Shown one piece after another: positions 3,524 to 36,054 of a stretch of 64,000 nt of DNA. The stretch lies in the NCBI GenBank assembly GCA_951406725.2, contig OX597822.1, positions 86,924,001 through 86,988,000 of the forward strand, read 5' to 3'. Numbering within the stretch: the stretch's first letter is position 1; each line of letters opens with the position of its first letter. Made by a program: the position numbers and the translations under genes. A model generated the notes under the pieces. It did not search any database, was not told the DNA's origin, and saw only the letters and a program-made list of their open reading frames with translations. This stretch comes from Octopus vulgaris (lineage: Eukaryota).

Positions 3524-3750
3524 ATATATATATATTTGTATGTATGTATATGTGTGTGTGTGTGTCTATCTATCTATCTATGTGTGTGTATATATATGTA
3601 TATATAAGTATATATGTATGTATGGATGTATATATCTATATATCTAAATATAAATGGACAACAAAACCAAGGCAAGATGAGTATCTCAGTCATTTAAAAT
3701 ATTTAATTAGAGTAAGGTGAATCAAAACACGGAGATGTAGAATTGATTAA

Positions 3751-3828
3751 TGTCTTACCTCAGTTTCTGGGACATCCCGGGTGAGGGGTCAGCATCTCCA
3801 TACACTGGGTATTCCGTCATCAGAGACA
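3751..3828 (-). ncRNA. Type I hammerhead ribozyme, intact core
   Basis: Minus: ugucu-CUGAUGA-cggaauaccc...gggauguccca-GAAAC-ugag-GUA-agaca; 5-bp stem I. Confidence 0.8.
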
Positions 3829-3923
3829 AGGAGTGTTTGCAGGAAAGATCCAGACACAGACTACTGTTTTATTCTTCTATCTACTGGGAATTTTCTGTCT
3901 GGAACTTTCCTGCATACACACCT

Positions 3924-4001
3924 TGTCTTTGATGATGGAATACCCACTGTATGGAGATGTCGACCCATCATGTGGGATATCCCAGAAACAGTTGTAAGAC
4001 A
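3924..4001 (+). ncRNA. Type I hammerhead ribozyme, C3U-mutated copy
   Basis: Plus: ugucu-UUGAUGA-uggaauaccca...ugggauauccca-GAAAC-aguu-GUA-agaca. Confidence 0.7.
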
Positions 4002-4341
4002 CTAATCAATTCTGCATCTCTGTTTTTTGATTCACCTTACTCTAATTAAATATTCTAAATGACCTGAAATACTTGTCTTGCCTTGGTTTCGTTGTCCAAG
4101 CCAACTACGGATCCTGAGCTCCAGCCTCAGCTGTGAACTTTGAACCTAACATGTGACCAATTATTGCACTTATGCAGTGTACCTATTCATTTATATATAT
4201 ATATATATATAAATTTTATATATATATATATATATATAAATATGAGGAGTTTAGTTCACTGATGATCTAAACGAATAAGTACACTGCATAAATACATTTA
4301 CATACATACATACATATGTCTCTCTCTCTCTCTCTATCTCT

Positions 4342-13753: not shown

Positions 13754-15319
13754 AATATATAAATTTAAATTTAAAATGAGGGTGAGAAATTAGATGTTAA
13801 TTTAATTAACATCGATTTCACACCAGTGGTCTAGCATATAAAAAAACTGAAGGTTCAGTAAAATTGTATTATATACATATTAGAGGGAAACCACCCTTAT
13901 GCTAGAAATAGATCCGCTGTGGTCTTATCACTAAGAAATGTTCTCAAGAAAAATTTAGCCAAACAACCAAAATGTAATCGAGCAAGACAAAAGAAAAAGC
14001 AATGAAAACATGGATTATTCGCATACATGTTTCACTATTAACATATTACGTAATTTTACTTACATAAATGTCCGTAGGTCATCAGTGCGACCGTCTAGAT
14101 GAATATAATTTGCAGGACTGCATACTACGTGTTCATTCACACTTACATTCAACAGAACATGTAAGCTTCATTTCTTTCCAGTCTTCTCATGTCCTCTGCA
14201 TTCAAGGTTCAAGTCTCACTACCCCACAGTATCACAGTAGTAGCTTCGTATAATCTACCTTTCACTCTGAGGGAAAAGACTTTTGTTGCCAGCAGCAATG
14301 GTAACTATTGGTTGCATAAGAGTAGAATTGTTGAAGGTGACAACAAGTGAATCAATAATGTATAATAAAAAGTGGAGGTGATATAACCAAGTTTCCACGT
14401 ATATCAGAGTCAACAGCTCAACAATGTGATGCTGCAGTTGGACAGAAAGCTTTTAATCCAAGAGAATTCCATAGAATCAGCTTGGTGAATATTGCAACAA
14501 AGATAAGTACCAATGTACCAGTGGTTCTCATAAATGAATCTTCTTACGCTAAAGATATTCATAACTGATCAAACCTGAGTGACTTCTGATCTGTCTGTAG
14601 ATGAGTTAATCAAATATTTTTCATCTTCCTAAAGTTCACAAAATAAAAATGGTCTTTCCAGCAGTTGACTCTTTACAATCTTTAATGTTCTTATCTCCTT
14701 TACTGTCAACAAGAAACAAGACAGACAGATAAGCTGCAACATTATAATGTTGATCATTGCTCTTGTTGTATTGTGTAACTTCAATATGAGATGAATCTTA
14801 TGATCTTAGGACCTTGAACATGCTAGCAGTGTTACTTTATTGAATGCACCCAATGCTTTAAAGAAGTTTGCTTTAAACATTAATTGATCTGTATTCTCAC
14901 AGTCAACAGTATTACTTAATAGCAATGACAGAGGAGTTTGTTCCTTTGAGGTTTTTCCTGCTACTTGTTGACCAGTCCAGGACAGTAAGATTGGGGAACT
15001 TATTTCATGTTGGCTCTCTAATATTGATATCCAGTTTCTAATCTCAAAGAGATGCAAAACTACTCCAAGAGCTGATGTGCCTGTGCACTTGTACACTCTT
15101 CTCTTTGGCTACTGTGAAGTTTCATATTTATAATTTCAGATTTTCCTTCTTAAGGATCTGATAACTGGGTTTGAAAAGAAAAATGCAGTTGAGTTCTGTA
15201 CTTACTTTAAATATGCCAAATCTGGTAATACTGGTAAATTCATTGCTATCTGGTGCCAGAACTGGTCATCTTCTCTGTGTTGACTTCACATTTCAACATC
15301 ATCATTATTCAGTGCTGAA

Positions 15320-18511: not shown

Positions 18512-18563
18512 TATGTTAGCTCCTACACACATTTTTTTTCTCTCCTTGTTTCTTTTCTGTGTA

Positions 18564-18601
18564 TCTTTCTGTCAAAGAGTGTAGGCTCAAAATGTAAAAG
18601 A
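18564..18601 (+). ncRNA. Decayed minimal hammerhead-like motif in a TA-flanked element (18520-18700)
   Basis: ucuuu-CUGUCAA-agagu guag gcuc-AAAA-ug-UA-aaaga; restoring CpG transitions gives CUGUCGA..gagc/gcuc..GAAACGUA. Confidence 0.45.
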
Positions 18602-18698
18602 CTTGTTCTATTTCTATTCCTGAGCGCCATACTAATACATTTGTTTGTTTGTACTCCACCTGCCTTCGTCTTTTGTTTATTTTCATAAACCTTCCTGT

Positions 18699-18731
<33 letters not shown>

Positions 18732-18774
18732 TTAGTGAGGGAAGAACGAAGATTTTACAAAATTCCTTTTTATT

Positions 18775-18860
18775 ATTTTCTACACATGTTTCAAAGGCTG
18801 CAAATTCCCTAATTCGGATTGAATAAGGAGGCCATTTTGCAGCATTCTCTTCAGGAAAAT
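18775..18860 (-). ncRNA. Type I hammerhead ribozyme, intact core
   Basis: Minus: auuuuc-CUGAAGA-gaaugcugcaaa...uuugcagccuuu-GAAAC-augu-GUA-gaaaau; 6-bp stem I. Confidence 0.8.
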
Positions 18861-18911
18861 CCAGGAACTTAAATCTCCAAACAAATGCGCAGCAAGCTTT
18901 TCGAACAAACG

Positions 18912-18965
18912 CTCCCTAGGAGCCCATGGTATGAATGGCCATTCATACCATGGGCTCCTAGGGAG
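18912..18965. repeat. Perfect 54-bp palindrome, no spacer
   Basis: ctccctaggagcccatggtatgaatgg|ccattcataccatgggctcctagggag. Confidence 0.97.
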
Positions 18966-19222
18966 AAAATAATAAAAAGGAATTTTGTAAAATTTTCGTT
19001 CAGCTCCATTTCTTCCCTCACTAAATATAAAACTTCAATTATCCGCACTAAGGCATGGTTGCGATACCCCATGGTCGTAACCTCAACCGTAATTTTTCTG
19101 TTGTGATTTTTGCTACCCATGTATCGGTTATAATTTGAATAATCCGTAACAAGATAATTCATTTATCCATTTCATTAAATATATATATATATATACATAT
19201 ATATCATAATGATGATGATGGT

Positions 19223-29852: not shown

Positions 29853-31212
29853 ATCATCATCATCATCATCATCATCATTTAACATCTGTTTTCCATGCTG
29901 GCATGGCTTGGATGTTTTGACAGGAACTAGCCAGCTGGGTAGCTGCCCAGGCTCCAATTATCTATTTTAGCACCGTTTCTGTGGATGCTCTTCCTAATGC
30001 CAACCACATTACAGAGTGTAGACTGGGTGCATTTATGCAGCTTCAGCGTGGGTGCTTTTATGTGGTCCTGGTATGTGTGGTTTTCCATGTCATCAGCATG
30101 AGTGCTTTTTATATGACACCAGCACCTGTGAGCCTTCCAAGTGAAGGACCTTTTTCTGAGAGGGGGATGTAGTGGACATGGTTGTATGTATGGACAGCCA
30201 CAGTTTTACTTAGTTTGACATGTCTTCTTATACACAACAAACCGTCAGTGGTCTTGGTCGCTTATCGTCTCCTTTGTGAAGTCCAGTGTCTGAAGATCTT
30301 TTCTCACCACTTCATCCTGCATCTTCCTGGGTTTACCTCTTCCACAGGTTCCCTCCACATTTGGAGATCAGAACTTTTTTATGCAGCTGTCCTCCTTCAT
30401 ATGCATCACATGATCATACCGGCACAGTCTTCTCTCTTGAATTACTACAACAGATGCCTTTTATACTCAATTTTTCTCTTAAATCATTTACACTCTGTTG
30501 TATATGCACACTGACATTACACATCCAGAGGAGCATACTGGTTTCATTTCTTTTAAGCCCACACATGTCCACTGTAATCATAACCCCTGTTTCACTGCCA
30601 TGTACCATAGCTGTTTGTACACAGGCATCATCTACCTTTCACTCTGAGGGAGAAGCCCTTTGATACTAACAAAGGTAGAAACTTTTTCCAGCCTGTTCTT
30701 ATTCTAGTAACTAAGCTTTCAGAACTTCCTCCTCCACTGCTAACTTGGTTGCCTCAGTAATAGAAGCTATCTACTACTTCTAAAGACCCTCCCCAGACAT
30801 TTGAGGAAGTCTATTCTCTACATTCTTAGTGTTTATTATACCTGCACATCTGCCACACACAAAGACTACTCTCTCTGTTAACCTTGTTGTGATACTGATG
30901 CACCTCTTATGTGTCCATAGCTTACACTGGGTACACTGTATGGAGTTTCTACCAACACCCGTCTTACATATTGAGTAGGGCCATCTCCCTGAAGGGATTT
31001 GAAATTTGTCTGTTTTCCTATTTACTAGAACTTTAGTCTTTGCTAAATTAACCCTAAAGCCCTTTGATTCCAAACTTTGTCTCCACACTTGAAGTTTCCT
31101 CTCTAGTTCAGGTAGTGATTCAGCAATAAAAAAAAGGTCATTAGTGTAGAGGAGCTCACAAGGGCATCGAGTCTTAAATTCCTCTGTTATGGCTTGGAGG
31201 ATTATGATAAAC
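29853..31212 (-). mobile_element. 5'-truncated RTE LINE
   Basis: FIIILQAITEEFKT.CPCELLYTNDL..LESKGFRVNLAKTK, Cys-rich insert CTQCKLWTHKRC, 3' UTR and tail. Confidence 0.9.
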
Positions 31213-32119
31213 ATTTCTCTGTTATGACCTGTATTAACTAAGTGTTAGTAGAACCAGTCTCTCTCACCGAATACAGTTAATGTCTCTTACTTTTATGTTG
31301 CCTTCTTCTAAATCTTACCATATTAATGATTGAAATTGCATCAGTGCATTGACTATAAAGAGTGGGCTTCAATATACAGCTTCAATGGGGTGGGATCAAT
31401 AATATGAACACTCTCAAGGAAACTTAAAGCATGTATAGACAAAAGATTGACATATTTATGAACACTTATAAAAATGTAGGGACTGTCCATTTGTTAGTTT
31501 TTGACCACCTGGAATCTTTCCTGCTTATATCTTATTGCTATGCAATACCAACCATTTCTTCAAAGGAACAATGTATTAATTGTGAACTAAGACAAGTTTC
31601 TAAATTCTTGCCTTTGGAATATTCCTTTGACTAAGCAAAAGGTGAATATTCTAAGGCGAAAAGAGAAAATCAACTGAATCAGTCCCAGGGTAATAAAACT
31701 ATGTATTTCATCGACTGAAAAGGAATTCCAAAGCTGACCTCTGAGAATTTAAACCCAAAAGAGTTAGGTACCCACTTATTTACCTGAAAGCATTCACATT
31801 AATATTCTACTGCCATCAATATTTTCATCACCCATTTTTTCCCAATGCAATATTACTAGTTGCATGTGTGAATGGTTGATTTTAGAATAGAGAAGTGAAT
31901 TCTTTCAGGGAATTTATCAGTTGTGCATAGCTTTCTTGCAACAAACCAATGAAATGGTAGAAAGGAGATACATGGAAGATGCAATGCATTTAAAAACATT
32001 TATTAAAGATATTTTTTTATGAAGTATAAAGCAAACCAATATTTTAGCAAATCACTAGTTTGACTTGTTTAATGAAGACAAGAATTTAATATTTTATGTT
32101 TGACTTAGATTTTGTTGGA

Positions 32120-33698: not shown

Positions 33699-36054
<2,356 letters not shown>

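Follow-up and report, generated by a model that had tools for sequence, protein, structure and literature searches.

A near-palindrome with two hammerhead motifs in Octopus vulgaris is probably an insertion scar of a Penelope-like element

The near-palindrome at 3656..4097 of a 64-kb stretch of Octopus vulgaris DNA (the window, meaning the whole stretch that was analysed) very probably consists of two 5'-truncated copies of the hammerhead-bearing end of one multicopy repeat, joined head to head in (TA)n, and is likely the inverted-copy scar of a Penelope-like element (PLE). It is most likely an ordinary insertion scar and not a stand-alone or purpose-built RNA device. A preliminary description had read the palindrome as a source of ribozyme sequence and long dsRNA, a reading that misses the known head-to-head layout of PLEs and the hundreds of distinct contigs of the same family present in each sequencing run. 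The locus adds one more member to a published retroelement layout.

The inverted repeat itself, described at the outset as a near-palindrome of about 440 bp, is confirmed. A repeat finder gives ungapped arms at 3689-3856 and 3896-4063 that are 88% complementary, and in a global alignment of 3655-3860 (minus strand) with 3861-4098 (plus strand) 179 of 206 aligned columns are identical, with 27 substitutions and one indel. As RNA, 3656-4097 has a predicted fold of -296 kcal/mol (z = -31), and none of 100 shuffles is equally stable. The end at 4097 is correct for the inverted arms but not for the repeat, as family sequence continues to 4188. The left arm (3655..3860, minus strand), defined by its alignment to the right arm, is a 5'-truncated inverted copy of a hammerhead-bearing terminal repeat, likely an inverted pLTR, and its 3' end lies 101 nt beyond the predicted hammerhead cut site. 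The right arm (3861..4097, plus strand), defined by family contigs on 3857-4190, is a 5'-truncated forward copy of the same repeat. The copies measure 206 and 237 nt respectively, the left being 31 nt shorter at its 5' end. No true spacer separates them: from the family contigs and the arm alignment, the additional 31 nt at 3861..3891 (plus strand) are counted as the right copy's own 5' sequence, because the letters that precede 3861 in other family members are unlike the left arm and the family is linear. Judged from these alignments, the two copies adjoin head to head at about 3860/3861. Within this region, 3861-3886 contains a short direct repeat in which CTACTG occurs twice, 20 nt apart, and some of the loose contig ends listed suggest further upstream repeats of the same unit in some family copies.

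Beyond the right arm, other family copies carry 30-40 more letters at 4097..4098 (plus strand) that the right copy lacks. This missing segment is as long as the published PLE tail, and it begins exactly at the outer end of the left arm. Family sequence then resumes as a one-sided extension at 4098..4188 (plus strand), delimited by contig depth and by two contigs of run X11 that cover 4106-4188. Tandem-repeat evidence places a TA-rich microsatellite, likely the insertion target, on the left flank (3524..3654) and a (TA)n microsatellite on the right (4189..4243). No target-site duplication is separable from the TA repeat at these flanks.

Each arm carries a type I hammerhead motif, at exactly the positions first proposed, 3751..3828 on the minus strand and 3924..4001 on the plus strand, and both comprise a 5-bp stem I, a 49-nt stem II region, GAAAC, a 4-nt loop III and GUA. 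The left motif, identified by motif scan, constrained fold and self-duplex, has an intact CUGAUGA...GAAA core, a C.A at the base of stem II and a 2-bp stem III, and its predicted cut follows GUA, between 3756 and 3755. The right motif, identified by motif scan, family letters and constrained fold, has the variant core UUGAUGA (C3-to-U at 3929), the C-to-T change already described, and its predicted cut falls after 3996. The left arm, like most of the family, has all of the core letters C3 U4 G5 A6 N7 G8 A9, G12 A13 A14, A15.1-U16.1 and H17; the right arm departs from them at position 3, which is U3. Stem II begins with U-A or C.A, not with G10.1-C11.1 directly after A9. The C.A of the left arm was considered as possible damage and this idea was dropped: C occurs there in 17-33% of family depth, and PLE-X1_cBra is listed with the same arrangement in the available supplement of PMC8557442.

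The minus-strand hammerhead had been called intact, which is true of its core but not of loop III. Its UGAG loop is no longer palindromic, and its predicted self-duplex reaches -4.0 kcal/mol, against -11.1 kcal/mol for the family loop; that of the right arm (two G.U wobbles) reaches -3.4 kcal/mol. The contrast drawn between UGAG in one arm and AGUU in the other, with GAAAC and GUA kept, is likewise visible as stated, but the family loop is AGCU and both arms depart from it. A strict motif scan finds three motifs in the 64-kb window against 0.06 expected from 100 local Markov controls, which give an expectation of 0.0004 within 444 bp; a relaxed scan finds four in the window against 0.25 expected. 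Rfam reports no hammerhead at gathering score anywhere in the 64-kb window, and none in 3640-4110 even at E up to 10; the assignment as hammerheads is therefore based on the anatomy of the motifs and on how the family varies. The five Rfam matches to 3640-4110 are all to miRNA hairpin models, far under their cut-offs, and a miRNA assignment was rejected since these matches only mirror the long hairpin. Three stems can be drawn around the core in a constrained fold. The hammerhead fold is predicted at -10.3 against -20.7 kcal/mol for the minimum-energy fold in one arm and at -17.2 against -21.4 kcal/mol in the other, and neither isolated arm adopts the hammerhead as its minimum-energy state.

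The family behind the arms was collected by searching public runs with 3857-4190, a query that leaves the left arm outside, and by aligning contigs at 80% likeness. The alignment covers four of the 24 runs listed, with about 80% of run X1 covered, and family details come from 40 of 96 letter rows, 15 of 46 joints, 12 of 20 joint inserts, 24 of 497 loose ends and 32 of 2917 pieces. Three DNA runs contain 898 matching contigs of 40.6 M, 918 of 23.6 M and 947 of 35.8 M, and most family contigs are less than 95% alike to the locus, as befits a dispersed repeat. Small shares of the family's words are found in runs of seven organism codes, of which only the aligned runs are used as evidence. The run search lists no RNA run with the locus, a result that has no bearing on its expression. 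Run X11, possibly RNA and of another organism code, contains nine contigs, none at least 99% alike, and is uninformative on the octopus locus. Among the loose ends listed, the plus-strand alignment of family contigs starts at 3861-3868, with as many as 447 letters upstream of it; where such unaligned letters precede 3861 (11 contigs in X1), they are unlike the left arm. On the other side, family sequence continues downstream past 4188. As judged from these contigs, the family is multicopy, dispersed and linear, and it is not palindromic at this centre. The 64-kb window contains no other copies of it.

The letters of the family at individual positions, given as shares of depth (sums over contigs, not copy counts), indicate what the hammerhead looked like elsewhere. 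C at 3929 makes up 84-94%, which yields an intact CUGAUGA core, and C at 3992 makes up 94-97%, which yields the loop III palindrome C-AGCU-G. A 1-2-bp stem III with a palindromic loop is thus found in the family and is weakened in both arms, and by its sequence the family hammerhead appears to be of the dimer type of PLEs. The stem II pair 3947/3972 is G-C in the family (57-70% C at 3972) or G-U (23-26%) and G-C in the left arm. In the right arm it is C-G, which may reflect either a different template or a later double change. At this one pair, the variation is of the kind expected in a stem. Further downstream, A at 4153 (84-87%) creates an ATG, and 4153-4188 may be where the reading frame of the element begins, covering its first 12 codons; two X11 contigs extend this frame by 10 codons without a stop. 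The start of the frame may resemble a PLE N-terminus.

Near the arms, the 118 frames of the first 14 kb contain no relevant Pfam match to a reverse transcriptase (RT) or GIY-YIG nuclease, and no host exon or PLE protein domain. The Pfam scan as a whole covered 139 of the 508 non-repetitive frames (those 118 and 21 elsewhere); four had matches, none of them to GIY-YIG or near the palindrome. We infer the family's tie to a PLE protein gene by analogy. Five short family DNA motifs have no matches among the published octopus PLEs (Naiad, Hydra-1_Obim) in the available supplement of PMC8557442, where line breaks may hide a match, and two shorter motifs have six and two matches, of which the four listed were unrelated. 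The Hydra-1_Obim hammerhead listed in that supplement differs from that of the palindrome family. No description of the family was found in the literature searched or in the available part of the same supplement; Repbase and Dfam lay outside the search, and the family may be catalogued there. Family pattern scans give no matches in metagenome and viral contigs. A gapped core pattern has one match each in metagenome and prokaryotic genome contigs, and both were dismissed as chance (best E 0.054, no further likeness). The excess of A-to-G changes that an edited template RNA would leave is absent from the DNA runs, in each of which A>G accounts for 5-8 of 64-69 changed places.

The layout of the locus has close counterparts in the literature, as far as the available portions of the sources cited here go. 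The 5' end of a PLE is often abutted by an inverted, 5'-truncated copy; a tail of 30-40 bp on one of the two ends is also frequent, as are hammerheads within the terminal repeats (PMC8557442). The supplement to that work lists Penelope-13_HM with a hammerhead on each strand owing to its inverted copy, and many families with (TA)n targets. The octopus locus is that of a dispersed, multicopy, linear element with a hammerhead in its terminal repeat and with copies running beyond both arm ends; an inverted, 5'-truncated copy adjoins the 5' end, and the target is AT-rich or (TA)n, with TA microsatellites on both sides. It resembles the inverted pLTRs of EN+ PLEs (PMC8557442, PMC3846280) in its unequal, head-to-head, 5'-truncated ends of about 200-240 nt each, its one-end extension, its (TA)n target and its outward hammerheads on both strands. 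It is unlike them in having no ORF body between the repeats and no separable target duplication, and in an extension that, at 91 nt after a 30-40-nt gap, is longer than the published 30-40-bp tail. As a truncated locus it has no RT or GIY-YIG frame, and the one possible piece of coding sequence is the 12-codon start, read from those 12 codons and the loose ends of two contigs. In the rotifer element Pen2a_Av, the pLTR is 218 bp long, its inverted partner falls 37 bp short of that, the tail measures 31 bp and the repeat takes in the first 12 codons; head-to-head is its commonest arrangement, and self-priming has been proposed (PMC3846280). The octopus copies of 237 and 206 nt, the 30-40 missing nt and the possible 12 codons fit these sizes.

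The ribozymes also have relatives. Minimal hammerheads that are dual, 100-700 bp apart on opposite strands, have been reported as truncated PLEs by Cervera and de la Pena (PMC4209133), who describe a palindromic loop 3 with a short stem III as the signature of dimer-type PLE ribozymes. The octopus motifs share with these metazoan minimal hammerheads the 5-bp stem I, the long stem II and the GUA cut triplet, the family's 2-bp stem III with palindromic loop, and the occurrence as opposite-strand pairs. They differ in their stem II region, which at 49 nt is longer and has U-A or C.A as its first pair, and in that both octopus copies have lost the perfect loop III palindrome; the likeness is one of sequence. 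In Schistosoma the single motif showed no cleavage and dimers showed low cleavage (PMC4209133).

Two further strict-core motifs occur in the window. A second, unrelated head-to-head pair lies at 18727-19029, and its minus-strand copy carries a strict-core hammerhead motif at 18776-18859 (minus strand) with the loop C-AUGU-G. The likeness of the plus-strand copy begins at 18965, at most one base from the predicted cut site, and a perfect 54-nt palindrome, 18912-18965, lies between the two copies, as in the self-priming model of PMC3846280, though this is one case only. The third strict-core type I motif, at 14017-14090 (minus strand), combines a perfect 5-bp stem I with a stem-loop III, C-AU-G, that is palindromic, and has a fold z of -3.1. 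To the eye, part of a further repeat fragment, 18563-18602 (plus strand), resembles a minimal hammerhead that has decayed, though the scan is negative there and the fold gives no support (z = 0.5). The window also contains two fragments of retroelement frames, one at 30783-31244 (minus strand) combining RVT_1 (E 2.7e-4, below the Pfam cut-off) with a PHD finger, and one at 34995-35417 (plus strand) resembling zf-RVT (E 3.5e-5, below the Pfam cut-off).

The differences between the arms suggest gradual decay. The family letter is listed for 13 of the 27 arm differences: the left arm has the majority letter at nine and the right at two, neither has it at one (3992), and one is mixed. At 4007, 4009 and 4016 the two arms agree on a letter that is in the minority in the family, and a single template or a single subfamily therefore underlies both. 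The arm-to-arm Jukes-Cantor distance is 0.14, or 0.07 each if the arms were initially identical. On the Octopus vulgaris scale of 0.065 for 18 million years (PMC13282606), arms that started identical would be about 20 million years old. Differences inside the hammerhead (13 of 78) and outside it (14 of 128) do not diverge detectably (p = 0.29), nor do transitions tolerated as G.U on one strand (10 vs 6, p = 0.45); numbers are small in both tests and power is low. No sign of selection on the hairpin was found with these low-powered tests.

It had been suggested that transcription in either direction would give both a ribozyme and a long dsRNA hairpin. The hairpin holds as a prediction, of about 200 bp from either strand. 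Both sequences would indeed be present in each transcript, but hairpin and ribozyme are predicted to exclude each other, because the antisense arm is made first and would bury the ribozyme. In the predicted fold of the read-through RNA the probability of stem I is 0.000 in either direction, and seven of seven core bases are paired on the plus strand and six of seven on the minus strand. The ribozyme is predicted to be freed only in an RNA that begins near the centre, for which stem I is still predicted at no more than 0.003 by a model without tertiary contacts. As that model ignores such contacts, weak cleavage by the left arm may still occur; axolotl repeat-hammerhead monomers, for example, cut 6-22% in one hour (PMC7229834). 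A dimer could not form in cis, because each RNA holds only one sense hammerhead. A scan for bacterial promoters, with models unsuited to a eukaryote, finds two sites against 2.2 expected.

The suggestion that the hairpin is an ADAR or Dicer substrate is plausible, but it is generic for any palindrome RNA. Throughout the animals, palindromic and inverted repeats are edited by default, palindromic ones without needing a partner, and octopus shows very high levels of editing in long dsRNA (PMC5625713). Like the ADAR-hyper-edited Xenopus Harbinger described in the same work, the octopus locus would fold on itself into a hairpin of about 200 bp if transcribed; Harbinger is palindromic as a family, whereas the octopus family is linear and its palindrome local. 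Editing of the locus, if transcribed, would not imply function.

Several other explanations fit parts of these data. The locus might belong to a non-autonomous, retrozyme-like derivative that borrows PLE enzymes, in which case the palindrome would still be a by-product of insertion. Animal non-LTR retrozymes have been proposed to derive from PLE pLTRs (10.64898/2026.07.22.740005), they share with the octopus repeat a type I hammerhead in a short non-coding repeat (PMC7229834; 10.64898/2026.07.22.740005), and no RT or nuclease gene is linked to the arms in the 118 frames of the first 14 kb. This is improbable, however: retrozymes form head-to-tail tandem arrays (PMC7229834), in which ribozymes on the same strand release circles, whereas no tandem array covers the octopus arms and their ribozymes lie on opposite strands, with one sense per RNA. 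Family contigs with up to 447 letters before 3861 and the possible start codon at 4153 also stand against it. To an equal degree we doubt that a single PLE fragment came first and that a later template switch during replication created the inverted duplicate together with the deletion at 4097/4098. Such an event would explain why the end of the left arm coincides exactly with the point at which 30-40 family letters are missing from the right arm, and it is compatible with the three shared minority letters; those letters fit one template RNA or subfamily equally well, the layout and sizes match published structures formed by PLEs at insertion, and the same 64-kb window contains a second head-to-head pair.

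That the host has kept the locus, whether to supply ADAR or Dicer with a hairpin RNA or as a ribozyme switch working in both directions, seems very improbable. The predicted hairpin is indeed extremely stable, octopus dsRNA is known to be edited, and the left core is intact in a class of ribozymes whose monomers sometimes cut weakly. Against this, the arm differences are neither depleted in the hammerhead nor biased towards G.U (at the low power noted), hairpin and ribozyme are predicted to be mutually exclusive in read-through RNA, and three strict-core motifs in one window imply that such motifs are common there. A MITE or foldback DNA transposon moving as a unit, with 205-bp terminal inverted repeats, would account for a near-palindrome of MITE size in AT-rich DNA, and it is largely refuted by the other copies, which are not palindromic at the same centre and continue past 4097 as well as past the centre; of the 15 of 46 joints listed, the only one between opposite strands has other breakpoints (3905/4024), though with short sides that make this point weak. 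An assembly fold-back artefact is hardly credible. No contig was seen across the centre, for which an aligned stretch starting at 3857 is ill-suited, but a read chimera would give near-identical arms, whereas these differ by an indel and at 27 of 206 columns, and the left arm agrees with the family majority at nine of the 13 differing places listed. A speculative idea, in which we place little belief although marginally more than in host retention, is that head-to-head stumps act as a built-in brake on the family, the hairpin hiding the ribozyme and being edited or diced into small RNAs against the family. An RNA started at the centre would then free the left hammerhead, and the match between the left end and the gap would record the RT jumping the 'tail' between start sites.

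The PLE insertion that we favour may have proceeded as follows. The element's GIY-YIG nuclease, to judge from published PLE biology, would have nicked AT-rich DNA, and reverse transcription would have begun about 100-190 nt beyond the hammerhead cut site and ended early. A second, inverted copy would have been made in the same event, either by fold-back self-priming or by priming from both nicked strands, and the two copies would then have been joined at their truncated ends. The PAc protein of a lizard cleaves both strands of the target, extends them and is needed by its ribozyme; PAc reverse transcription starts 111-118 nt inside the ORF, and the hammerhead cut lies at +26 (PMC11167929), a spacing to be compared with the 101 nt by which the octopus left arm runs beyond its cut site. 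After insertion, the arms would have decayed separately, reaching the distance given above. The hammerhead of the parent element would cleave tandem transcripts, either as a dimer or assisted by protein. At the octopus locus it is predicted to be largely idle, because two copies on opposite strands cannot pair within one RNA, the core of the right one carries a mutation and the ribozyme would be buried in read-through RNA; any dsRNA would be a by-product.

A regulatory role for the octopus copy would matter more than a scar, and nothing found points to one. If many such stumps are present in the host genome, their centres and ends could separate the fold-back and both-strand-priming models of PLE insertion. 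If numerous, their hairpins would also form a countable source of ADAR substrates in an animal that edits its RNA heavily.
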